The notes under the pieces: generated by a model
The model's input: the letters and a program-made list of their open reading frames with translations, nothing else
The model's database searches: none
Told to the model about the DNA's origin: nothing
Shown: piece by piece, positions 2,113-57,332 of the stretch
Layout of the letters: the number at the start of each line of letters is the position of its first letter
Numbering within the stretch: position 1 is the stretch's first letter
Made by a program: the position numbers and the translations under genes
Sequence record: PX246730.1
Source: a phage
Length of the DNA stretch: 64,000 nucleotides
Direction: 5' to 3' (one strand)

Positions 2113-2186
2113 CTCTGTTTAGCTCAGCTTGGTAGAGCGTTCCGTTTGGGGCGGTAAGGCCGGAGGTTCAAGTCCTCCAACAGAGA
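2113..2186 (+). tRNA. tRNA-Pro(TGG)
   Basis: 7 bp acceptor CTCTGTT/AACAGAG, D-stem GCTC/GAGC, anticodon loop ttTGGgg, T-arm GGAGG-TTCAAGT-CCTCC, CCA encoded. Confidence 0.7.
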
Positions 2187-2196
2187 CCAAATTAAT

Positions 2197-2271
2197 GTTC
2201 CAGTAGACAAAATGGTATAGTCACCACTCTTTCAAAGTGGATATTTGAGGGTTCAAATCCCTTCTGGAACG
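2197..2271 (+). tRNA. tRNA-Glu(TTC)
   Basis: acceptor GTTCCAG/CTGGAAC, anticodon stem CCACT/AGTGG with loop ctTTCaa, T-loop TTCAAAT, CCA encoded. Confidence 0.7.
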
Positions 2272-2285
2272 CCAGTTTTGACAGA

Positions 2286-2352
2286 AGACCAATTGCAGCA
2301 AACTTAATCTTATTCATCTGAAGGTAAATCGGACAAAGAAGAGATTTGGTCT
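2286..2352 (+). repeat. spacer hairpin element copy a (CAGAAGACCAA ... TTGGTCTGG)
   Basis: inverted repeat AGACCAA/TTGGTCT flanking about 55 nt; conserved internal motif cagcaaaCTTAA; first of four paralogous copies. Confidence 0.6.
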
Positions 2353-2365
2353 GGTCATTAAGAAT

Positions 2366-2439
2366 TGCGGGTATAGAGAAAGGGCGTCTCACATGTCTCA
2401 TTAGCATGGTATCGGCAGGTTCGACTCCTGCACCCGCCT
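2366..2439 (+). tRNA. tRNA with CAT anticodon (Met, fMet or Ile2)
   Basis: acceptor pairs with ACCCGCC with 1:72 mismatch, D-stem GAGA/TCTC, anticodon stem CATGT/GCATG with loop ctCATta, T-arm GCAGG-TTCGACT-CCTGC. Confidence 0.55.
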
Positions 2440-2452
2440 CCAAATTTACAGA

Positions 2453-2511
2453 AGACCGTTTACAGCAATACTTATTAAATTTTTAGCGGAAAAAATTGAA
2501 AGATACGGTCT
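2453..2511 (+). repeat. spacer hairpin element copy b (AGACCGT ... ACGGTCT)
   Basis: same conserved 5' motif tttacagaagaccgtttacagcaa and 3' ggtctggtaat as copies a, c, d. Confidence 0.6.
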
Positions 2512-2526
2512 GGTAATACTAAACAT

Positions 2527-2600
2527 GGTTAGGAAGCACATAAGGTATGTGCGGTCGCCTGTTAAGCGAATGGCACAGGGTTCGAATCCCTGACTAACCG
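2527..2600 (+). tRNA. tRNA-Asn(GTT)
   Basis: acceptor GGTTAGG/ACTAACC (6 of 7 bp), anticodon loop ctGTTaa, T-arm CAGGG-TTCGAAT-CCCTG. Confidence 0.6.
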
Positions 2601-2611
2601 CAAAATTTAAA

Positions 2612-2698
2612 TGTGTCGTTATCCCGTAGATGGTAGCGGTGGGGACTGTAAATCCCTTGTCATTGAGACTCGGTAGGTTCGACTCCTACACGGCACAC
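2612..2698 (+). tRNA. tRNA-Tyr(GTA)
   Basis: acceptor TGTGTCG/CGGCACA, anticodon stem GGGGA/TCCCT with loop ctGTAaa, long variable arm, T-loop TTCGACT, CCA encoded. Confidence 0.7.
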
Positions 2699-2764
2699 CA
2701 ATTTTGAGAGGGCTATTTAGCCCCTCCCTTAAAGAGTTCTTACGAGTATTCTTTAAAGGAGCAG

Positions 2765-2833
2765 AAGACCAAATACAGCAAGTTACTTAAAATTTCAAGC
2801 CAATTTAATTTTGAAAAATTTAAAACTTGGTCT
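2765..2833 (+). repeat. spacer hairpin element copy c (AGACCAA ... TTGGTCT)
   Basis: conserved gcagaagaccaaatacagcaagttacttaa and cttggtctgg. Confidence 0.6.
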
Positions 2834-2852
2834 GGCTCAACAAATTTACAGA

Positions 2853-2978
2853 AGACCGTTTACAGCAAAACTTAAACAATCTATTTCTCTGGTAAAGAAA
2901 AGGCGAAGGTTCGATTCCTTCACTCGGCAGATGTCGAGTTGGTGTAATGGTAGCACTTAAGATGATAAACAACGGTCT
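2853..2978 (+). repeat. spacer hairpin element copy d, enclosing tRNA-like pieces
   Basis: inverted repeat AGACCGT (2853-2859) / ACGGTCT (2972-2978) flanks the permuted tRNA-Thr-like segment. Confidence 0.6.
2884..2957 (+). tRNA. tRNA-Thr(GGT)-like, apparently circularly permuted (3' two-thirds upstream of 5' third)
   Basis: 2884-2929: anticodon arm TTTCT-ctGGTaa-AGAAA, T-arm GAAGG-TTCGATT-CCTTC, 3' acceptor ACTCGGC plus discriminator; 2933-2957: 5' acceptor GTCGAGT (pairs 7 of 7 with ACTCGGC incl. one GU) plus complete D-arm GTGT-aatggta-GCAC. Confidence 0.35.
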
Positions 2979-3129
2979 GGTAATTATCTTTGTAGATAAG
3001 TTATTAAGCTTACCTGTGAGTATGCGACCACAAAGGGTGAAAGGGTAAATTCTAGATTTAAACCCAACAAGGCACATCGCTACAGACCTTAAGCAAGTCT
3101 GGGTAGCTTATCTACAAAGATAATTTAAT

Positions 3130-3202
3130 GGAAGTGTAGCAGAATGGTGATGCGGCAGACTTTTAATCTGACAGGCGATGGGTTCGAATCCCTCCACTTC
3201 TA
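3130..3202 (+). tRNA. tRNA-Lys(TTT) (probable)
   Basis: acceptor GGAAGTG/CACTTCT, anticodon loop ctTTTaa, T-loop TTCGAAT, CCA encoded; T-stem imperfect. Confidence 0.55.
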
Positions 3203-3209
3203 CCAATAT

Positions 3210-3283
3210 GGTTCAGTCGCAGATAAGGTAATGCAGGGGTCTCATAAGCCCTATGAATGTGGGTTCGATTCCCATCTGAACCT
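3210..3283 (+). tRNA. tRNA with CAT anticodon (Met, fMet or Ile2)
   Basis: perfect acceptor GGTTCAG/CTGAACC, anticodon stem GGGGT/GCCCT with loop ctCATaa, T-arm GTGGG-TTCGATT-CCCAT, CCA encoded. Confidence 0.65.
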
Positions 3284-3288
3284 CCAAT

Positions 3289-3361
3289 GCTGTGAAAGCA
3301 CATATGGATGTGCATTCGGCTGATAACCGAAAGGAAGAAGGTTCGAATCCTTCTCACAGTA
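3289..3361 (+). tRNA. tRNA-Ile(GAT)
   Basis: acceptor GCTGTGA/TCACAGT, D-stem GCAC/GTGC, anticodon stem TTCGG/CCGAA with loop ctGATaa, T-arm GAAGG-TTCGAAT-CCTTC, CCA encoded. Confidence 0.75.
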
Positions 3362-3379
3362 CCAATTTCAATAAAGTTG

Positions 3380-3408
3380 TTGACACTGAGATGTGACTAC
3401 TTTATAGT
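3380..3408 (+). promoter_or_regulatory. sigma70-like promoter (TTGACA-N17-TATAGT) inside tRNA cluster
   Basis: -35 TTGACA 3380-3385, -10 TATAGT 3403-3408. Confidence 0.55.
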
Positions 3409-3613
3409 AACCTTAGTTTTCGTTGCGTAGCGTCTATTTTGCAAATTTAAAATAAATGCAAACGACAATGTTTTTCTGGCAGTAGCTTGATAGGCTAAAC
3501 ACCAGTGAGGTCTTCCAATCCCTCATCAAAGAATTTGGCGTACTAGCCCACGGTATGATTAATAAGGTGGGCATCTTTAAGGGCTTTCTAAGAGAGTCTT
3601 TAAAGATTAATTA

Positions 3614-3692
3614 CGGGGCGTATCTCATCTGTCTTCTAAACAGACGTTAACCGAGTAAGTGGAGTATGCGGGTTCGAGTCCTGCCGCCTCGA
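3614..3692 (+). tRNA. tRNA-like element with TCT (Arg-type) anticodon loop, atypical D region
   Basis: acceptor CGGGGCG/CGCCTCG, perfect anticodon arm TCTGT-ctTCTaa-ACAGA, T-loop TTCGAGT, CCA encoded; only 7 nt between acceptor and anticodon stem, 22 nt before T-arm. Confidence 0.4.
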
Positions 3693-3838
3693 CCAATTTA
3701 GTTAGCAGATTACTTAGACGACCTAAGCGGGTCTTCCTGTAGGGAGGTGGTCTGTATCTCATGTTTTCCAGAACATGTAAATAATCTGAGAAGGGGCTTT
3801 ACAGTGTTGAGATAATACGGTAAGCTTCGAATTATAGT

Positions 3839-3918
3839 ATGGGACGATGTTAAGACTCTAAGGCATGAGCAACGGCTTCCAACACCGTTTCAAAGGGGTT
3901 CGACTCCTCCGTCCCATG
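3839..3918 (+). tRNA. tRNA, anticodon unresolved (possibly Trp CCA)
   Basis: perfect acceptor ATGGGAC/GTCCCAT, T-loop TTCGACT, CCA encoded; anticodon region ACGG-cttCCAaca-CCGT has a 9-nt loop. Confidence 0.45.
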
Positions 3919-3934
3919 CCAAAGTCTTATTAGG

Positions 3935-4022
3935 GGTAGGTAGCGGCTAATGGTAGCCAAACTGTCTTGAAAACAGTTGCCACTGTAGAGATACGGTGAG
4001 GGTTCGACTTCTTTACTTACCG
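3935..4022 (+). tRNA. tRNA-Ser(TGA)
   Basis: acceptor GGTAGGT/ACTTACC, anticodon arm ACTGT-ctTGAaa-ACAGT, long variable arm, T-loop TTCGACT. Confidence 0.7.
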
Positions 4023-4178
4023 CCTAATAAGATTTTAAAGCCAAGCTTCATTCGGATGTTGCTTTGGTATCCCTCGTGTTGTCGAACACACTAATAAAGC
4101 ACCTAGTAGGTGTCACGGAGAAGAGATAATATCAAGCTCTCCAAAGGTTCTAGTCACCGGATTAAACAAGACTATGCA

Positions 4179-4200
4179 AAGACCTTTTTAGGTCTTTTTA
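4179..4200 (+). terminator. hairpin plus T-run (possible intrinsic terminator or processing site)
   Basis: AAGACC-ttttta-GGTCTT followed by TTTA. Confidence 0.4.
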
Positions 4201-4278
4201 GAGGGCTTCTAAGGTTATTACAGCTTGTTGTGGAACCTTGTTGCTTAGGTTCTTAGAAGTTCTCTAAAAAGATTTAAT

Positions 4279-4353
4279 GGGAGATTGACGGTAATTGGTA
4301 AACCTATCTCGCTTAGAACGAGATGTTTGAGGGTTCGAATCCCTTGTCTCCTA
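4279..4353 (+). tRNA. tRNA-Leu(TAG), short variable loop
   Basis: acceptor GGGAGAT/GTCTCCT, anticodon arm ATCTCG-ctTAGaa-CGAGAT, T-arm GAGGG-TTCGAAT-CCCTT, CCA encoded. Confidence 0.55.
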
Positions 4354-4363
4354 CCAAATTAAT

Positions 4364-4436
4364 GCAGGTGTAGCAAAATGGTTATGCGGCTGACTCTTAA
4401 TCAGTAAGACGATGGGTTCAATTCCCTCCACCTGTA
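4364..4436 (+). tRNA. tRNA-Lys(CTT) (probable)
   Basis: acceptor GCAGGTG/CACCTGT, D-stem GCA/TGC, anticodon arm GCTGA-ctCTTaa-TCAGT, T-loop TTCAATT, CCA encoded. Confidence 0.6.
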
Positions 4437-4445
4437 CCAGATATT

Positions 4446-4518
4446 GGGGATGTAGTTTACATGGTTAAAACATAAGTTTTGCAAAATTAAGTACAGGGTT
4501 CAATTCCCTGCTTCTCCA
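4446..4518 (+). tRNA. tRNA-Ala(TGC)
   Basis: acceptor with G3:T70 wobble pair (Ala identity element), D-stem GTTT/AAAC, anticodon loop ttTGCaa, T-arm CAGGG-TTCAATT-CCCTG, CCA encoded. Confidence 0.65.
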
Positions 4519-4527
4519 CCAATTAGT

Positions 4528-4599
4528 GCATCCATAGTTTAAACGGGAAAATTACAGTCTTCCAAACTGAGGTTGAGGGTTCGATTCCCTCTGGATGCT
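4528..4599 (+). tRNA. tRNA-Gly(TCC)
   Basis: perfect acceptor GCATCCA/TGGATGC, anticodon arm CAGT-ctTCCaa-ACTG, T-arm GAGGG-TTCGATT-CCCTC, CCA encoded. Confidence 0.7.
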
Positions 4600-4608
4600 C
4601 CAAATAAT

Positions 4609-4682
4609 GCTGCTTTCGTATAATTGGCTATTACACATCCCTTGTAAGGATGGAAATGCAGGTTCGAGTCCTGTGAGCAGCA
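4609..4682 (+). tRNA. tRNA-Thr(TGT)
   Basis: acceptor GCTGCTT/GAGCAGC, anticodon arm CATCC-ctTGTaa-GGATG, T-arm GCAGG-TTCGAGT-CCTGT, CCA encoded. Confidence 0.75.
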
Positions 4683-4780
4683 CCAATTCAGAGGTCAAGT
4701 GAAAGACCGCTGGTGTCAACTGAAGACCGTAACAAATTCCACGGAGTTGAGTTAGCGGCACAACTTCAGACCTCTTTCAC

Positions 4781-4852
4781 ACTCGCTTAGTTTATATGGT
4801 AAAACACCACCCTTACAAGATGAAGAAAAAGGTTCAAGTCCTTTAGTGAGTA
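4781..4852 (+). tRNA. tRNA-Val(TAC) (tentative; weak anticodon stem)
   Basis: acceptor ACTCGCT/AGTGAGT, D-stem GTTT/AAAC, loop ctTACaa, perfect T-arm AAAGG-TTCAAGT-CCTTT, CCA encoded. Confidence 0.45.
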
Positions 4853-4856
4853 CCAT

Positions 4857-4931
4857 GTTCCAGTATCCCAATTGGCAGAGGATGCAAGCTCAAACCTTGT
4901 ACTAGTGACGGTTCGAATCCGTCTTGGAACA
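4857..4931 (+). tRNA. tRNA-Leu(CAA), short variable loop
   Basis: acceptor GTTCCAG/TTGGAAC, D-stem TCC/GGA with 11-nt loop, anticodon arm GCAAG-ctCAAac-CTTGT, T-arm GACGG-TTCGAAT-CCGTC, CCA encoded. Confidence 0.55.
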
Positions 4932-4939
4932 CCAATTTT

Positions 4940-5012
4940 GCAGGATTAGTTCAAATGGATAGAGCAACAGTCTACGAAGCTGTTAATAGGGGTTCGAATC
5001 CCTTATCCTGCG
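4940..5012 (+). tRNA. tRNA-Arg(ACG)
   Basis: perfect acceptor GCAGGAT/ATCCTGC, anticodon arm ACAGT-ctACGaa-GCTGT, T-arm TAGGG-TTCGAAT-CCCTT, CCA encoded. Confidence 0.75.
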
Positions 5013-5034
5013 CCAATTTAAAGAGGCTATTTAG

Positions 5035-5592
5035 ATGAGATATTTGAAGTATGCTTCATGGATTTTCTTAGCTTTGTTAGAGCCATTTGCAGCAATCTTA
5101 GCAGTAATTTTAGCACCCTTTGTGGTTCCATTCTACAGTGAAAAGAAAGGACACTTACCTTTTGGATTCAGATGGATGGAGACTTATGATAACCCAATTG
5201 ATGGTGACAAAGGCCACGTTGAGAGATGGGCTAAGATTAGAAAGATTGGTAAGCTCGGTGTTTATATGCAGAGAGTTGGATGGCTCTGGAGAAACAAAGC
5301 TTATAACTTCTCTTACCATGTGCTAGGAAGAGATGTAAAAGATGTTACTAAGTGGAAAGGTAATATCAACGTAAGTTCTAACCCTGAAGATAATCAGACA
5401 GGTTATCTCCTAATGTGGAACAGTAATGCTTGGGGATTATTCGCTTTTACCCCATCAATTAAAATCTTTGGTAAACAATTCTACTGGAGAATTTATGTTG
5501 GATGGAAACTTAAAAGTGTTGTCCCAGAAGAAAGAGCATTCTCAAGGGAAAGAGTTATGTTGGCATTCTTTATTCATCCACTAAGAAAGTAA
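5035..5592 (+). CDS. hypothetical membrane protein (185 aa) embedded in tRNA cluster
   Basis: ORF track; hydrophobic N-terminal segment (IFLALLEPFAAILAVILAPFVVPF); Trp/aromatic-rich. Confidence 0.5.
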   Translation: MRYLKYASWIFLALLEPFAAILAVILAPFVVPFYSEKKGHLPFGFRWMETYDNPIDGDKGHVERWAKIRKIGKLGVYMQRVGWLWRNKAYNFSYHVLGRDVKDVTKWKGNINVSSNPEDNQTGYLLMWNSNAWGLFAFTPSIKIFGKQFYWRIYVGWKLKSVVPEERAFSRERVMLAFFIHPLRK

Positions 5593-5600
5593 AGATTTAA

Positions 5601-5673
5601 AGGGGATTAGTTTACAAGGTTAAAACCTCGGTCTTTGAAATCGAAGAAGTTGGTTCAATTCCAACATCCCCCA
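5601..5673 (+). tRNA. tRNA-Gln(TTG)
   Basis: acceptor AGGGGAT/ATCCCCC (1:72 mismatch), D-stem GTTT/AAAC, anticodon arm TCGGT-ctTTGaa-ATCGA, T-arm GTTGG-TTCAATT-CCAAC, CCA encoded. Confidence 0.6.
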
Positions 5674-5678
5674 CCAAT

Positions 5679-5754
5679 GCTCCATTACTCCAATTGGCAG
5701 AGAGGCCAGACTTAAAATCTGTGTTATGTATCGGTTCGAATCCGATATGGAGTA
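5679..5754 (+). tRNA. tRNA-Leu(TAA), short variable loop
   Basis: acceptor GCTCCAT/ATGGAGT, D-arm paralogous to the CAA tRNA (caattggcaga), loop ctTAAaa, T-arm ATCGG-TTCGAAT-CCGAT, CCA encoded. Confidence 0.55.
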
Positions 5755-5762
5755 CCAAATTT

Positions 5763-5835
5763 AGCGGTATAGCATAACTGGCAATGCAGCAGTCTCTGAA
5801 GCTGTCCTATTAAGGTTCAAATCCTTATGCCGCTG
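5763..5835 (+). tRNA. tRNA-Gln(CTG)
   Basis: acceptor AGCGGTA/TGCCGCT, anticodon arm GCAGT-ctCTGaa-GCTGT, T-arm TAAGG-TTCAAAT-CCTTA, CCA encoded. Confidence 0.6.
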
Positions 5836-5869
5836 CCACTTCTAAGGGTTCTTACGAGAGTCCTTAAAT

Positions 5870-5942
5870 GTGGCCTTATCATAAAAGGTAATGACCCATG
5901 CTGTGAACATGGTCTATACGGGTTCAAATCCCGTAGGTCACC
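5870..5942 (+). tRNA. tRNA-His(GTG)
   Basis: acceptor GTGGCCT/AGGTCAC, anticodon arm CCATG-ctGTGaa-CATGG, T-arm ACGGG-TTCAAAT-CCCGT, CCA encoded. Confidence 0.75.
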
Positions 5943-5950
5943 CCAATTTA

Positions 5951-6024
5951 TAGTCCAAGTAGCTTATATGGTAAAGCGCGTGTCTGAAAAACATGAGAAG
6001 AGGGTTCAAATCCCACTGGACTAC
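5951..6024 (+). tRNA. tRNA-Phe(GAA)
   Basis: acceptor TAGTCCA/TGGACTA, anticodon arm CGTGT-ctGAAaa-ACATG, T-loop TTCAAAT. Confidence 0.7.
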
Positions 6025-6042
6025 CAATTTCAAAGGTGCTTA

Positions 6043-6777
6043 ATGAAAGAGATGACAGAACAAGGTAAGGAGATTTTTAATCTCTTAAAAACCGGTAGAG
6101 GGTTTTCTAATCCCCTTATTACTGGTGCAGCAGTTCTCGGTGGAACCGTAGCTGCCTCTACATCACTTGTAAGCTCTATTAGCTCTGTAACAGACCCTAC
6201 AATAAAAGATAAGCTTGTTGCTGCTGGGCTTACAACAGTCCTCCTAAACAGCTTTACAACAAGCCTGACAAGCACTACAGCAACTACTAAGACCCTGACA
6301 GACTACGGTCAAAAGTCTATTGATGAGTTTTCATCACGTATGCAGGTAGCAAAGGGATACTCCAATGTTATGGGTGCAGCAGGAGAACAAGTTGGTTGTA
6401 CACCATTCAGTGGTATTATGGGTGTTGCTACAGAGTATGGTCAAAAAGCTATTGACATGATGAACAGTACACTAGATAGTGTTAATGGTGTGTTAAGTGA
6501 CTTACAAGATGCTATTGATAAGGGTCTTGATACTGTTTCTGATTTAGCTAACCAAGCTGTTAGTAAGATTAATGAAGGTATCTCGAAGATTACAGCTTAT
6601 GCAGATGAAGTTGTGCAGATGATTGAAGAAGAAGCTGCCCTTATTGCAGAGTACCTTAAAACGAATATCAATGGGTTCTTAGCAGGTATCTTACCAGACT
6701 GGTTTGATGATGCCTGTAAAACTGGTGTAATTGACACTATTGCAACACCAGAAATGAAGAGCGCATTACAGAAATAA
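6043..6777 (+). CDS. hypothetical Ser/Thr-rich protein (244 aa)
   Basis: ORF 5827-6777 trimmed to ATG at 6043 because upstream part overlaps tRNA-His/Phe; no motif recognised. Confidence 0.5.
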   Translation: MKEMTEQGKEIFNLLKTGRGFSNPLITGAAVLGGTVAASTSLVSSISSVTDPTIKDKLVAAGLTTVLLNSFTTSLTSTTATTKTLTDYGQKSIDEFSSRMQVAKGYSNVMGAAGEQVGCTPFSGIMGVATEYGQKAIDMMNSTLDSVNGVLSDLQDAIDKGLDTVSDLANQAVSKINEGISKITAYADEVVQMIEEEAALIAEYLKTNINGFLAGILPDWFDDACKTGVIDTIATPEMKSALQK

Positions 6778-6778
6778 T

Positions 6779-6868
6779 GGAAGATTAACCCTAAAAGGTA
6801 AGGGAGCAGTTTGCTAAACTGCCAGTAGCTGAGAAATCGGTGTACCAGTTCAAGTCTGGTATCTTCCT
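6779..6868 (+). tRNA. tRNA-Ser(GCT)
   Basis: perfect acceptor GGAAGAT/ATCTTCC, perfect anticodon arm GCAGT-ttGCTaa-ACTGC, long variable arm, T-arm ACCAG-TTCAAGT-CTGGT, CCA encoded. Confidence 0.8.
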
Positions 6869-6875
6869 CCAATTT

Positions 6876-6948
6876 GAATCCGTGACAGAAATGGATATGT
6901 GCCTGTCTGCAAAACAGGTTTATAAGGGTTCGAGTCCCTTCGGATTCT
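6876..6948 (+). tRNA. tRNA-Cys(GCA)
   Basis: perfect acceptor GAATCCG/CGGATTC, perfect anticodon arm CCTGT-ctGCAaa-ACAGG, T-arm AAGGG-TTCGAGT-CCCTT, CCA encoded. Confidence 0.8.
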
Positions 6949-38208: not shown

Positions 38209-38724
38209 TCAACTTAGTTTTGCAAACTCTCCGTGAAGTTTAATAGCAGCTTCACAGTAAGCTTTATGGGCTTCTTCTTCTGTTGTGTATGTCCCTATAT
38301 GTATAGTCTTGCCATTATGGTTAATCTGGGCTTTCCACTTACCAGACTTACTTCTACTTGTACCTTTTAAGTTTTTTGATGTTCTAGGTTGTCTCCTATT
38401 AGACATATTCTGTTCTTTTGTGGCCTCTCTTAGATTGTCCCAAGCGTTATTCAAACCATCTCCATCTTTGTGGTCAATTTGCTTATCAGGCCACTTGCCT
38501 GTCATCCAGAACCAAGCAATTCGGTGATTGCCTGTCCTGTATCCTAAAATCTGTGTGTGCATATACACACCAGACCTTGTGCGCTTAATTGCTCCGGCTT
38601 GGCTTCCAATAACCACCCTACTACTGTGTGGAGGTCTGCCAATCCATGTTAAGACCCCTGTTTCGGGGTCATAATCTAACCAAGATTTTAACTGTTCATG
38701 TGTGAATCCACAATCTCTCATCAA
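38209..38724 (-). CDS. HNH endonuclease with AP2 DNA-binding domain (free-standing homing endonuclease-like)
   Basis: HNH signature IDHKDGDGLNNAWDNLREATKEQN; AP2-like SKSGKWKAQINHNGKTIHIGTYTTEEEAHKAYCEAAIKLHGEFA; 4-nt overlap with polymerase exon 2. Confidence 0.7.
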   Translation of the reverse strand: MMRDCGFTHEQLKSWLDYDPETGVLTWIGRPPHSSRVVIGSQAGAIKRTRSGVYMHTQILGYRTGNHRIAWFWMTGKWPDKQIDHKDGDGLNNAWDNLREATKEQNMSNRRQPRTSKNLKGTSRSKSGKWKAQINHNGKTIHIGTYTTEEEAHKAYCEAAIKLHGEFAKLS

Positions 38725-39285
38725 TGTACCTCATACCACGATTTACCAACCTTTGCTGTACCAGTTACAAGTGTTTCTTTCCTCAAACCTAAGTTTTTTG
38801 AAGCTTGTCCATACATCCAGTCAGCAATTGCTTTCATATCCTGTGTCATACCCTCTGGACATTCCCAACTATTTTCATCGTGATATGCCAGAAGTAACCT
38901 TGCTCCGATAGCTGGTTTTCGAGCATTCAGTTTTGTCAGGCCATCTTCACAGGCTTTTCTTGCTGCTAGGTTGATGGCCTCATTCTGAATCTGGGCTTCC
39001 GAACTCATCAAGAGGTAGTTCAGTAGTTTATGTGGAGATTTGCACCATATCCATGCTCCAGCGACCCTGATATAACCACCTTTAGCAATTGAAGAATTCT
39101 TCCCAAAAACCTCTTCCAGAGCCTTTTTAGACGCCTTAAAATCGGCTTCTAAGCTATCAAGTAACTTCTTAATCTTTGGCAGACGCATATAGTAAGTTTG
39201 TTTAGTCAATGCACCTTCTTCCGTAGATGATGCTTTGATAGTTTTTGCAAACTTCTCATCACCTGCACCAAACAATACATCTGGT
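38721..39285 (-). CDS. DNA polymerase (family A) exon 2
   Basis: FGAGDEK (motif B continuation) and YHDE motif C; frame open upstream only to 39284. Confidence 0.75.
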
Positions 39286-39553
39286 CAATACACTCGCAAG
39301 GTGTACCAGTTCTCTTATGAACTTCTCCGCATTTCTACGGAGTGTCGGACTATATCACGTAGTAGTAATACTACCGTTGCACTTGGGAATGGTCATTAGC
39401 TTACCACCCTACTCTACTCAGTTCATACATTAAGTATGCTTTTCGATAGTCTCTGAACGTTCCTCTTAAGAGGCTTCGCTGCTGATTACCATATCTTTAC
39501 AGACTTAGGCTTCCAGCAATTCACAACGTTTTACATGCGCCACTGACGCATAA
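39286..39553 (-). mobile_element. group I intron in DNA polymerase gene (no internal ORF)
   Basis: on minus strand, in order: P-like AATTGCTGGAAG (about 39510-39521), Q-like AATCAGCAGC (39478-39487), R GTTCAGAGACTA (39447-39459), S GATATAGTCC (39346-39356); 5' exon ends in U, intron ends in G. Confidence 0.7.
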
Positions 39554-41718
39554 ATGCCATTTTTGGCTTTCTTACGACCTTTTGTAATCTCGTGGAGAAG
39601 TTCCTCATCCTGTGTCTCCCTACAACGAACAATGTCTTCTTCCTTGTTCAGACCAAAGTAAATACTGTTCAGTGTATGCGCATCAGTCCCTGTGTAGACT
39701 TCATAGAGGTCGTTCTCAGCATCATAACGAAGATACTTGTCAGTTTCTGGATTAAGATACTTATCGAGATGCTTGCAATAGTATCTACCGTCATCTTGCT
39801 TAGTGAACTCTACTGACTCTTTACCCTCAGTTACTGCTTTGGTGAACTCTTTATCACCCATAAAGTTACAAAGGAGAACTAGCTGTGCAGAGTTCTGGTC
39901 AACTGAAACGATATTAGTCCCTTCCTCGCAAATCCACACCTCCCTCATAGGCGCTCCATAGACAGCAGCACCAGACGGTACGTTTACAATACCATATTGT
40001 GTCATACGTCCAGTTGAAGTACCAAACACCATTGCACCAGCACTAAGGCGACCATCAGGACGAATCTGGTTCAACCAACCTTTTTCATCATCCTTTGAGT
40101 TCTCAATAGTTCTACGTCGGTGCATCAAAGTATAGTACTTAGCAATCTTCTGTCCAAGCTCACCTTCAATCGTGTCATAAGATGACTCAGTAAGCTTTGG
40201 TGAAGTACGGATTAAACAAGGCTCAAGCAAATCTGTGTATTTTTTCACAGACCAGTTATGCTCAATGTACTGTACACCTTCATGCTCAACATAGCTCAAA
40301 CCACACCGCTCAACCATTTCCTGCCACTTAGGATGTTTTGTAATCATCTTTTTATTGTCTTTGAAACGACAAACCTTAACAGGGCGACCGTCTGAGTCTT
40401 TCTTGTAGTTCCAGTCATCTGGAATCCAACCAACTGATTTCAAGTAGTCTTTAACAACTGCTACCTGAGTCATACGAGAAACTTCAAACTCAATTGGTGT
40501 ATATGGTGCATCAATCAAACCTGTGTAGCGACTTGACTCAAGTTCAAAGTGGTTAACAACATGACTGTTATAGTACTTCACGGTTTTGACTGTTTTTACT
40601 GGCTTCCAGTCTTTGCATTTCTTACCAATCTTTGCGTTCAAATCATTGCAAATTGCACGAGCATCCTTCATTGCTACAAAGCCTTCCTTGTACTCTTCAC
40701 CAGTTACAGAGTTGGTTGGTGTATAGCAATTTCTCTTTTCAATGTTAAAAATCTTTGTAGTTGGCTTACCAAATGGTTTGATTTCGTATGTCTGCATCTC
40801 ACCGTTACGTACCTGTTGACGATACTTTGTCTTAGGATACTTGGTAATTCTTTTCAGTCCATCTGCATGACCAAACGTTTCAACATACTCATTCCAAGCT
40901 TTTGCAAACTCTTCTCCAGTCACTTTACCTTTGGTCTTAATAGTTGGAGGAAGGTGTGGTTCAACCTCTGAAGCAAGCTCATTAGTCAACTTGTCAAGTT
41001 CCTTTACATGGAACTCCATAAGCTCCTTATCAGCTTTCCAACCATTGATAGCCTGTTGACTCATCCAGAAAGATGTTTCTTTAGCTCGCATGTAGGTTTC
41101 ATAAGTGTCTATGCCACACTTCTTAAGCTTGAGATACTCGTTATCAAGTGCCCGTTTAGTTTTGGCGTTAATACGGATATCTTCTACAACACGAGTGAAG
41201 ATTTCTGCATTCCACACACCCCAATGTTCAATCTCTGGTTTACGAACACCAACACGAGCACCCCATGCAGCCAAACCATGAGCACCTTTATAGCCCTTTG
41301 GAGTTGGTCTATCCATCCACTGAACACGAGACTGAATAAGAGAATCCTGAAAGAAATTACTCCACGGCTTACACTTTGGATTATCAAAGTTCCATAAATC
41401 AGGTGCAATGTGATTGAAAACCCACCAGTCATAACCGAGACCATTATGGATGCAAAGGCGTTTTGCCTTTAACGCAAATTCAACACCTTCACGTAAGCCG
41501 CCCTTGATGTACTTGGTATACTTGTGACCGAGGATAGGCTCATCTGTAAAGACCCATACAGGTGGCTCTTCATCGTCAGATTTATAGTCTGCGAAAGCCA
41601 TTACGTGAACTTTAGTGAACTCAAGGAGTAAACCATCAGTTTCTGTATCACCAACCAAATGTAAGTTTTTAAAATCTACGTTTTCCATTTTCACTCCCTC
41701 TAAAATCATTAACCACAT
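39554..41718 (-). CDS. DNA polymerase (family A) exon 1, with 3'-5' exonuclease domain
   Basis: Exo I motif GDTETDGL; polymerase motif A region VDQNSAQLVLL; motif B start RKKAKNGI; ORF continues into intron to stop at 39505. Confidence 0.75.
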
Positions 41719-54871: not shown

Positions 54872-56068
54872 ATGAACAAAGTACAGATTATTAAAAAGAA
54901 TGGCTCACTCGAAGAACCTGATATCAAAAAAGTTTTAGTAGCAGTCACAAAGTCAGCTAACAGAGTTGGTTATAAAGAGCTTCCACCAGATGTTACTCAA
55001 GCTCTTGAGTCAGCATTTATGAGGATTCTGGTAAAGTCCACTAAGCAGAATAATTTGCTAATTTCTGTAAATGATATTCACAGTATTGTTGAAGGTGCTT
55101 TGGCAGAAGTCAATCACGAGATTTATGAGTCTTACTCAACATACAGAAATTATCGTAAAGAGGTTGCTCAAAATTGGGATGAGCTTTACCAAAAGACTAA
55201 AGACACACTCTTCTTAGGTGACCGTGAAAACGCTAACTTTGACAGTAGTTTAATTTCTACAAAAGGCTCAATTATTCGTGGTTACCTGACTAAAGAAATC
55301 TTTAAACAGTACCATTTAACACCAGAGGAACTCGAATCCATTGAAAAAGGGTTTATCTACATCCATGACTTAAGAGACCTAATTTTTGGTGGGATTAACT
55401 GTTGCCTGTTTGACATTGGTAAAGTACTGAAAGGTGGCTTTGAAATGTCTGGCATCGAATACTGTGAACCAAAATCTGTACTGTCAGCCTTACAAGTTAT
55501 TGGTGATGTAGTTCTTTCAGCAACTGCACAGCAATTTGGTGGCTTTACTTTAGCAGAGATTGATAAGGTACTTGTACCGTATGCTAAGAAGTCTCTACGC
55601 TATCATGCTGAGAAAGCAGCATCTTATGGTATTCCTAAAGAACATTACCACAATTATGTCATGGAGCAGCTACAGATTGAACTGACTCAAGGTTTCCAGT
55701 CACTTGAAATGAAACTAAACACTGTGCCTTGTAGTCGTGGGGATTTTGCATTCACAACTTTGACATTCGGGTTGCTTGACTCAGATATGTCCAATGAAGA
55801 TAACCGACTGCAATATATGATTGCAAGTACTCTCCTAGATGTTCGTATGAATGGACAAGGTAAGAGCAAGAAGCCTGTTGTATTCCCTAAACTGGTTTAT
55901 ATTTATGACCAGAAGAGACACGATGAGAATATCTGTCAAGGCCACCTGTACAGTAAAGCTATTGAGTGTTGCTCTAAAGCTATGTATCCAGATTTCTTAA
56001 GTGTATCTGGTCATGGTGCTGTAGCAGAGGCTTTTGAGCGTTCTGGTAAGGTTATTTCACCGATGGGT
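54872..56068 (+). CDS. nrdD: anaerobic ribonucleotide reductase exon 1
   Basis: N-terminal ATP-cone-like region; ORF ends SPMG then in-frame stop inside intron. Confidence 0.75.
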
Positions 56069-56384
56069 TAACAAGCTCTATAGCTCATCTAAAACGTGCC
56101 TAAACAGGGAAACTCTACAGATGTAGACAATCCTGTGCTAAATGATGTATGATGTAAGAAACTATACAACATAGGAGTCTTACATGCCAAATAACTTCGA
56201 ATACGAGTTTGAATACATCTAAATGCCGAACGACTAACCGTGATGAATGTAGCGGTGTAGGGTCAAGCGACTCGAAATGGTACGCTACTTAGAAATAAGT
56301 AGAAGATATAGTCTGGACTTACTGGCGACAGTAAGCAGCTTGAATAAAGCGGGGTAAGCTTAGCGAACTTACCTGAACAACAAG
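56069..56384 (+). mobile_element. group I intron in nrdD (316 nt, no internal ORF)
   Basis: P-like CAGGGAAA (56105-56112), Q-like AATCCTGTGC (56129-56138), R-like CGAACGACTAAC (56227-56238), S AAGATATAGTC (56303-56313); 5' exon ends in T, intron ends in G; splicing gives in-frame SPMG|CRAFLSP. Confidence 0.7.
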
Positions 56385-57332
56385 TGTAGAGCATTTTTAT
56401 CACCATACCATAACGAATATGGTGAAGAGTTTTATGTAGGTCGTGCTAACATTGGTGCTGTATCTTTGAACTTGCCAATGATTTACCAGTATTCTAAAGA
56501 TAATGGTTTAGATTTCTGGAAAGAGCTTGATAAGTACCTAGAGATGATTCGCAGCTTCCATAAGAAACGCTACGAAATGATTGCTAATATGCCAGCAAGT
56601 TCTAACCCTCTTGCATTCACACAAGGTGGTCTGTACAAAGGGAATAAGAAACCTACTGACAAGGTTGGTTGGGATATCGTGAAGTCCTTCACAGCTTCTT
56701 TTGGGGTTACTGCGCTTGATGAGTTGTCTGTTCTTGCTGAAGGTAAACGACTTCATGAAGCTGGAAGCTGTAGTTTTGCATACGATGTTCTGGAATACAT
56801 CAACATGAAAACTGAAGAGTTTAAAAACGAAGACGGCTTCTTATATGCAGTCTATGGCACTCCAGCAGAATCACTTTGTGGAACTCAGCTAAAACAGTTC
56901 AGAGATATGTTTGGCGTTATCAAAGGTGTTTCTGACAAGGAATATTTTACAAACAGTTTCCATATGAATGTTGCAGCAAACATCTCACCATTTGAGAAGC
57001 AGGACTTAGAAGAACCATTCTTCCATATCTGTAGAGGTGGCAGAATCCAGTATGTAAGGGTAGCTAACCCAGAAAACTTAACAGCACTTAAAAGTTGTAT
57101 TACAAGAGGGATGTTGAAAGGTTTTTATCAGGGACTTAACTTTGACTTAGCAATCTGTGAACATTGTGGTAACAGACCAAAGGCTGATGTTGAAGAATGT
57201 GAGGTTTGTCATTCACATGATATCTCTGTGATTAACAGGGTGTGTGGGTACTTGTCATTCACAAAAATTAAAGGTCAGTCTCGAATGAATGACGCTAAGA
57301 TGGCAGAAATTAAGGATAGGATTTCTATGTAA
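56385..57332 (+). CDS. nrdD: anaerobic ribonucleotide reductase exon 2
   Basis: C-terminal Zn site CEHCGN...CEVCHSHD and glycyl-radical motif RVCGYL; combined length 714 aa. Confidence 0.75.
   Translation, partial: CRAFLSPYHNEYGEEFYVGRANIGAVSLNLPMIYQYSKDNGLDFWKELDKYLEMIRSFHKKRYEMIANMPASSNPLAFTQGGLYKGNKKPTDKVGWDIVKSFTASFGVTALDELSVLAEGKRLHEAGSCSFAYDVLEYINMKTEEFKNEDGFLYAVYGTPAESLCGTQLKQFRDMFGVIKGVSDKEYFTNSFHMNVAANISPFEKQDLEEPFFHICRGGRIQYVRVANPENLTALKSCITRGMLKGFYQGLNFDLAICEHCGNRPKADVEECEVCHSHDISVINRVCGYLSFTKIKGQSRMNDAKMAEIKDRISM

Follow-up and report, generated by a model that had tools for sequence, protein, structure and literature searches.

The window analysed here, a 64,000-nucleotide stretch of phage DNA (sequence record PX246730.1), comes from a Felixounavirus, a Felix O1-like myophage of the Ounavirinae. 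Its polymerase region shares 96–97% identity with those of phiWec172, vB_Si_35FD, KEP1, REP5-12 and many other Felix O1-like myophages. The minus strand carries the gene for a family A DNA polymerase, followed by an HNH-AP2 endonuclease gene, small ORFs and the gene for an ATP-dependent DNA ligase. The HNH-AP2 gene (38209–38724, minus strand) encodes a free-standing homing endonuclease (Pfam HNH_3, 54.7 bits; AP2, 37.1 bits), and its start codon shares a base with the stop codon of the polymerase (TGATG). Elsewhere in the window, 22 tRNA genes are clustered at 2113–6948 on the plus strand (Rfam scores of 33–60 bits), which fits the 22 tRNAs reported for Felix O1. The reading frame of the polymerase is interrupted. 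The first ORF (41718..39505, minus strand) encodes 737 aa and ends at a TAA stop at 39507–39505, and another frame, shifted by 2, is open on the same strand between 39284 and 38721 and matches the C-terminal part of the Pfam DNA_pol_A domain. An earlier note on this DNA, made from the sequence alone, had read both the stop at 39505 and the resumption in another frame at 39284 correctly, and had proposed that a group I intron splits the gene.

The covariance search that the earlier note had suggested as a check was run with the Rfam group I model and returned a match to RF00028 at 39608..39325 of the minus strand. With 64.2 bits (gathering score, 50) and E = 5.7e-14, it far exceeds what chance would produce. 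It includes the alignment of the core elements R and S, both of which were found where the note had placed them. The interrupting element is a true group I intron, 268 nt long and without a gene of its own; on the coding strand, no ORF of at least 20 aa was found inside it except the read-through from exon 1, in agreement with the note. The ends of the Rfam match are not those of the intron. Position 39608 was rejected as the intron start, as the P1 and P2 columns of the model had been made to fit 63 nt of exon 1; at the other end the match stops at P9, 47 nt before the 3′ splice site.

The intron was delimited by comparison with intron-less alleles. Candidate junctions were those at which exon 1 ends in U and the intron ends in G, the frame is kept and no stop is created. 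There were 51 such junctions, and only 39546/39277 (a slash marks the splice junction here and below) reproduces NGIYALLFGAGDEK and KNGIYALLFGAGDEK. The intron-less phages AN17P8, FGS030, Z31 and wV8 (4/4) read uninterrupted KNGIYALLFGAGDEK and have IYALLFGAG; over a 400-nt junction probe the first three were 93–95% identical and wV8 77%. The peptide formed at 39546/39277, AKNGIYALLFGAGDEK, is the same as in these relatives. When a probe for the 3′ junction was used in a megablast search, the alignments of the intron-less relatives began at probe positions 124–129, corresponding to window positions 39277–39272. Because only this junction restores the intron-less peptide, the intron was assigned to 39545..39278; exon 1 ends in ...GCGU at 39546, and the intron ends in ...GAUG at 39278. 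A Leu codon is split (U/UA), so that the ligated message would read ...GCG U/UA UUG..., and the predicted sequence at the ligated exons is GGCATTTATGCGT/TATTGTTTGG (also given as AATGGCATTTATGCGT/TATTGTTTGGTGCAGG). In the intron-less phages the uninterrupted site is TACGCCCTGTTATTT. The flanking exon bases are TATGCGT/TATTG in intron-containing alleles versus TACGCCCTGTTA or TATGCACTGCTG in intron-less ones; the differences are synonymous, and the bases of the intron-containing alleles are those required by P1 and P10.

This position lies in motif B, the O-helix, of the polymerase, as the earlier note had recognized: the codon that it interrupts is the counterpart of T7 F528 in the alignment. 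In a phmmer comparison, the spliced sequence GRKKAKNGIYALLFGAGDEKF aligned straight across the junction to residues 517–537 of T7 DNA polymerase (TRDNAKTFIYGFLYGAGDEKI), and the RxxxKxxxY/FxxxY/F motif of family A polymerases was aligned across the splice junction. Splicing at 39546/39277 leaves the O-helix intact (RKKAKNGIYALLFGAGDEK), keeps the R, K, Y and F residues in register with T7, and fits T7 AKTFIYGFLYGAGDEK better than the junction proposed before. With the O-helix aligned by eye, we take the insertion site to correspond approximately to L764 of Pol I.

The earlier proposal was right about the U-ending exon, the G-ending intron and the length of 268 nt, but not about the ends themselves, which it placed at 39553..39286 and considered good to a few nucleotides; on the coding strand, each lies 8 nt upstream of the true position. 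Splicing there (exon 1 ending at 39554, exon 2 starting at 39285) would likewise obey the U...G rule, keep the frame and give a 909-aa product, with the junction peptide AKNGI/PDVLFGAGDEK (NGIPDVLFGAGDEK, AKNGIPDVLFGAGDEK, KNGIPDVLFGAGDEK). However, IYAL would become IPDV, putting a proline at the conserved O-helix tyrosine (T7 Y526) in a segment that 4/4 intron-less relatives read as IYALLFGAG. Moreover, no guide was found for an exon ending in ...AUGGCAU, the best duplex reaching −4.0 kcal/mol versus −8.4 kcal/mol for P1 at the corrected junction, and the alignments of the intron-less relatives do not begin at 39285. We regard use of this junction as extremely improbable.

The secondary structure deduced for the intron is given in Table 1. 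P1 comprises 7–8 bp and includes the U.G pair expected at the 5′ splice site (U39546.G39540); its free energy is −8.7 kcal/mol as a hairpin and −8.4 kcal/mol as a duplex. The first five intron bases, CAGUG (39545–39541), form the P1 loop and the 5′ strand of P10, for which the candidate is a weak 5-bp pairing (−1.1 kcal/mol) with UAUUG (39277–39273) of exon 2. P2 is absent from the window intron in the structure read from the sequence. The elements follow in the order P3, P4, P5/P5a, P6/P6a, P7 5′ strand, P7.1, P7.2, P3 3′ strand, P8, P7 3′ strand, P9, P9.1, P9.2 and omega-G. The intron belongs to subgroup IA and is IA2-like, because P7 and the 3′ strand of P3 are separated by two hairpins, P7.1 and P7.2. 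For IA2 introns, a G-U-A link between P7.1 and P7.2 is quoted in PMC3428280; the linker found here is 14 nt long (AACUGAGUAGAGUA), contains GUA twice and is invariant across the family. An outer extension of P7.1 (UCG/UGA) was rejected, as it is broken in relatives. The minimum-free-energy fold of the whole intron recovered P3–P9.1 but preferred to P1 a pairing of the two splice-site regions, AUGCGUC at the 5′ site (39546–39552) with GAUGUAU at the 3′ site (39272–39282), which reaches −7.2 kcal/mol. This alternative might hold both splice sites together or compete with P1.

Table 1. Features of the interrupted polymerase gene and of its intron in the window.
Feature	Position	Strand	Description or evidence
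Exon 1, family A DNA polymerase	39546..41718	-	Exonuclease domain, long insert, palm/fingers to ...RKKAKNGIYA plus U of the Leu codon
Group I intron, 268 nt, IA2-like, ORF-less	39278..39545	-	Rfam, intron-less alleles, covariation; starts CAGUGGCGCAUG, ends ...ACCAGAUG, omega-G 39278
Exon 2, polymerase	38721..39277	-	Starts UA UUG UUU GGU... (Leu completed, then LFGAGDEK...); TGA at 38723-38721
R element	39458-39447	-	GTTCAGAGACTA
S element	39356-39347	-	GATATAGTCC
P1	39534..39552	-	Exon UAUGCGU (39552-39546) with internal guide sequence GCGCAUG (39540-39534)
P3	39528-39522 with 39381-39375	-	Encloses P4 through P7.2
P4	39518-39513 with 39485-39480	-	R2 covariation
P5/P5a	39510-39488	-	R2 covariation
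P6/P6a	39457..39479	-	Minimal hairpin GCCUCUUAAGAGG, 4-bp P6a; place of endonuclease gene insertion in relatives
P7 5′ strand	39451-39447	-	Within the region enclosed by P3
P7.1	39438-39424	-	Between P7 5′ strand and P3 3′ strand
P7.2	39409-39387	-	Between P7 5′ strand and P3 3′ strand
P8	39374-39359	-	Rfam, covariation
J8/7 and P7 3′ strand, UAGUC	39352-39348	-	Inside the S element
P9	39342-39325	-	Rfam, covariation
P9.1	39322-39309	-	Peripheral; invariant among felixounaviruses
P9.2	39307-39283	-	Peripheral; invariant among felixounaviruses; followed by terminal AGAUG and omega-G

The structure was examined for covariation with two covariance models, R1 and R2, which were built from felixounavirus sequences and the hand-drawn structure, together with a scan of IMG/VR with the 21-mer GTTCAGAGACTATCGAAAAGC, which yielded 32 loci in a range of diverse phages; R1 aligned 28 distinct sequences and R2 aligned 40. 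For R1 (P7, P7.1, P7.2, P8 and P9), 94.7% of cells were paired and 25/30 pairs had changed on both sides, with slid controls at 30–45%; for R2 (P3–P6, P7.1 and P7.2), the values were 92.6% and 37/38, with slid controls at 32–47%. The alignments were fitted to their own models and are thus biased toward the structure, although the margins are large. All 12 pairs of P7.1 and P7.2 covary. P7 is conserved and does not covary, and P1, P10, P9.1 and P9.2, which are invariant among the felixounavirus copies, lie outside the covariation and rest on sequence logic. Within the felixounaviruses themselves, compensatory changes were found in P8 (U-A to C-G in Meda and VpaE1, U-A to U.G in EC6), in P6a (U-A to C-G) and in P7.2 (G.U to G-C). 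The block GUUCAGAGACUAUCGAAAAGC...GAACUGAGUAGAGUAG, whose conserved parts are J7/7.1 and J7.1/7.2, hardly varies among the group I introns that many unrelated IMG/VR phage contigs carry (L013–L038). These include crAss-like phages, with a different polymerase and a GIY-YIG endonuclease, and others with a topoisomerase-like exon 2 (ILPxFGK). One crAss-like element, cr3_1, was considered as an intron at the same site and rejected: its core is similar, but it resides in an unrelated polymerase and carries a GIY-YIG endonuclease.

In the mechanism that we propose, the exon 1 end UAUGCGU would pair with the guide GCGCAUG to form P1 in the pre-mRNA, and a free guanosine bound at P7 would attack after U39546. 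The freed exon 1 would then attack after the terminal G39278, with P10 (CAGUG/UAUUG) aligning exon 2, and ligation would restore the Leu codon and a 909-aa polymerase. If the RNA were left unspliced, the frame from exon 1 would end at the TAA inside the intron, giving a truncated 737-aa protein that breaks off in the O-helix, without the remainder of the polymerase domain. Ribosomes entering from exon 1 would reach this in-frame stop 40 nt into the intron and could in doing so disturb P1 to P4.

Most database records annotate the two parts as separate CDSs ("DNA polymerase" twice, or "DNA polymerase subunit" in Mushroom), and naturally split family A polymerases exist elsewhere, so that the 737-aa product and a second polypeptide of about 185 aa might together form the enzyme with no splicing at all. 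This arrangement appears very unlikely here. The break sits in the middle of the O-helix, and near the 5′ end of exon 2 there is neither an ATG nor a GTG start, the sole candidate being a TTG at 39275 that lies inside the motif and has no Shine-Dalgarno sequence upstream. Furthermore, the RNA between the two frames forms a complete group I ribozyme with covarying helices, and taking it out gives back exactly the ancestral protein: the 909-aa spliced product shows 99% identity and 0 gaps against the polymerase of the intron-less phage Z31.

The intron might also be a decayed, splicing-defective remnant, with the polymerase a pseudogene in the window genome. It lacks a homing endonuclease gene, either through loss or because none was ever acquired, and degenerate copies do occur in relatives (a two-piece endonuclease in VpaE1, a deletion in Mushroom). 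However, every core helix is intact, as are the guide sequence, the U.G pair and omega-G. In addition, the same intron is present in many independently isolated plaque-forming phages, and the exons are obviously under purifying selection, given that their protein is 99% identical to the polymerase of Z31, which has no intron. Such decay of the window copy is in our view scarcely credible. Isolated lytic phages, including vB_Si_35FD, Meda, REP5-12 and others, carry a 96.6–99.3% identical intron in the polymerase gene, and each intron-carrying record has one place only that matches the polymerase region. Alongside the observed RNA fold, covariation, exact junction and patchy distribution, we strongly infer from the sequences that splicing occurs, because these plaque-forming isolates carry the intron in a presumably essential gene, and splicing is presumably efficient. 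In the literature searched, no report was found of experimental splicing of a felixounavirus polymerase intron. Overall, we put at roughly 93% the probability that the group I intron self-splices from the polymerase pre-mRNA and restores a 909-aa polymerase with an intact O-helix.

All intron copies examined in felixounaviruses share the same splice junctions and an identical P1 sequence, and four forms were distinguished. The first, of 268 nt and ORF-less, is that of the window, Meda and many others. The second, of ~800 nt, carries in an extended P6a an ORF of 160 aa (Pfam Endonuclease_7, 71 bits); this Endo VII-type ORF was detected in 41 felixounavirus records at an identity of at least 77%. 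Its carriers, Escherichia phages EC6 and JH2 and Salmonella phage FSL SP-010, have the intron at the same site, with the same splice junctions and ribozyme core (97–99% identity outside P6a), whereas the window has a 4-bp P6a hairpin at that place. In the third form, seen in VpaE1 (2617–3077 of locus L006), the ORF gives two separate matches, carries two overlapping CDS annotations and is apparently frameshifted. In the fourth, the 311-nt intron of Salmonella phage Mushroom, the ORF has been deleted between two CCTAA repeats, leaving a long P6a stem and the last three codons (1575–1640 of locus L007). The VpaE1 and Mushroom copies are decay intermediates of the intron endonuclease gene. The intron was present in roughly 110–120 of about 260–300 felixounavirus records (~40–45%), a count that is approximate because it is contaminated by short matches from other phages. 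Presence and absence vary at one precise site among near relatives, whose intron-less genes are 93–95% identical over the 400-nt junction region. The window intron cannot move on its own, because it has no endonuclease gene, and it could be either a derivative produced by loss of that gene or a form that preceded its invasion. We also considered whether the HNH-AP2 gene travels with the intron ("collaborative homing"), but all four combinations of presence and absence were seen and there was no association.

Pseudomonas phage LUZ24 and the T7-like Pectobacterium phage Jarilo also carry group I introns in the O-helix coding region of their family A polymerases; the LUZ24 intron is attributed to Ceyssens et al. 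(2008), as cited in PMC6083498. The junctions in both phages were deduced from the U/G rule, restoration of the frame and P1 pairing. They place the Jarilo intron at about 2296–3025 of NC_047963 (L043), with the peptide AKTF/IYGFLYGAGDEK, and the LUZ24 intron at about 1830–2503 of NC_010325 (L044), with AKTFI-Y-AFIYGAGDAK. In T7 numbering, the codons interrupted are F524 in Jarilo (TT/T), Y526 in LUZ24 (T/AT) and the F528 equivalent in the window (T/TA), and the three sites span 11 nt. The Endo VII-type endonucleases of the LUZ24 and Jarilo introns share 51–52% identity with that of EC6 and are its nearest relatives outside the genus, and Jarilo has the same 14-nt P9.1 sequence as the window (GTTCATAAGAGAAC). 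The Jarilo polymerase intron gave no Rfam match at the gathering score, and our own covariance models reached neither the Jarilo nor the LUZ24 ribozyme core, which are too diverged. The introns of the Felix O1, LUZ24 and Jarilo types might represent one lineage of intron and endonuclease that was re-targeted to three O-helix positions within 11 nt in three unrelated phage groups, the ORF-less window copy being mobilised in trans by endonuclease-bearing co-infecting relatives or by the adjoining HNH-AP2 endonuclease; we offer this as a speculation that is rather unlikely to hold in full.

Other polymerase introns were listed in 2012 by E. coli Pol I position: 674 for SPO1, SP82, Bastille and Pf-WMP3, 676 for phiL7, and 881 for PhiI and W31, and self-splicing of these introns has been proven experimentally (PMC3428280). 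Like the window intron, they are of IA2 type and lie in highly conserved polymerase motifs, with the endonuclease, if any, in P6a; they differ in occupying other sites and in encoding HNH-type endonucleases, whereas the felixounavirus family uses the Endo VII type. The td, nrdB and nrdD introns of T4 are IA2 introns as well. T4 is also a virulent enterobacterial myophage whose introns reside in genes of DNA or nucleotide metabolism and are patchy among relatives, but the host genes differ, there is no close sequence similarity, and T4 has an intron-free polymerase of family B. The window itself contains another group I intron, at 56011–56335 of the plus strand (Rfam, 53.7 bits; E = 8e-11), where it splits nrdD, the gene for the anaerobic ribonucleotide reductase. 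The flanking ORFs, 54872–56071 and 56466–57332, match positions 1–250 and 284–560 of the Pfam NRDD profile, respectively, and no ORF of at least 80 aa was found in the gap. In the Meda genome paper, nrdD is described as interrupted by an HNH endonuclease (PMC6486253).

The polymerase intron is a known kind of element and is already on record for Felixounavirus. The 2019 announcement of Salmonella phage Meda (Microbiol Resour Announc) described an intron without HNH in the polymerase gene (PMC6486253), and the GenBank record (MH586731) annotates the polymerase CDS as a join. The Meda intron is at the same site, 268 nt long, ORF-less and near-identical to that of the window, with few substitutions, some of them compensatory (P8, P7.2); the spliced Meda protein, with either junction, had no exact match in the sequence collection searched. 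Fang et al. (2018, Mob DNA 9:27; PMC6083498) listed Endo VII-motif "DHHRN" proteins of JH2, EC6, FSL SP-010 and 2 JES-2013 as intron-encoded. Introns are absent according to the paper on the Felix O1 genome (PMC3185647), the SPJ41 paper counts "two introns" among the non-coding RNAs, and a 2021 comparative study that included vB_Si_35FD left the intron unmentioned and discussed the endonuclease VII of FSL SP-107 by way of T4 mismatch repair. Most of the roughly 110–120 intron-bearing public genomes list the polymerase as two genes or name the endonuclease "DNA polymerase I" or a repair enzyme. In the EC6 record (JX560968), the intron endonuclease is "DNA polymerase I" and both polymerase exons are "hypothetical protein". 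Two records labelled Campylobacter phage A132 and A126 (MG065664, MG065668) match the polymerase region at 96.7%, the A132 intron being 100% identical, and one Staphylococcus-labelled record also matches the Felixounavirus polymerase region; these records are probably mislabelled or contaminated.

The window intron leaves the understanding of group I introns unchanged, and its main value is for annotation: the exact junction (GCGU/UAUUG, with Leu as U/UA) allows the 909-aa polymerase to be annotated correctly. Felixounaviruses are candidates for therapy and biocontrol, so that correct gene models are useful. For the family, the series from full endonuclease through two-piece and deleted forms to the minimal P6a hairpin provides a natural example of the cycle of gain and loss of a homing element.
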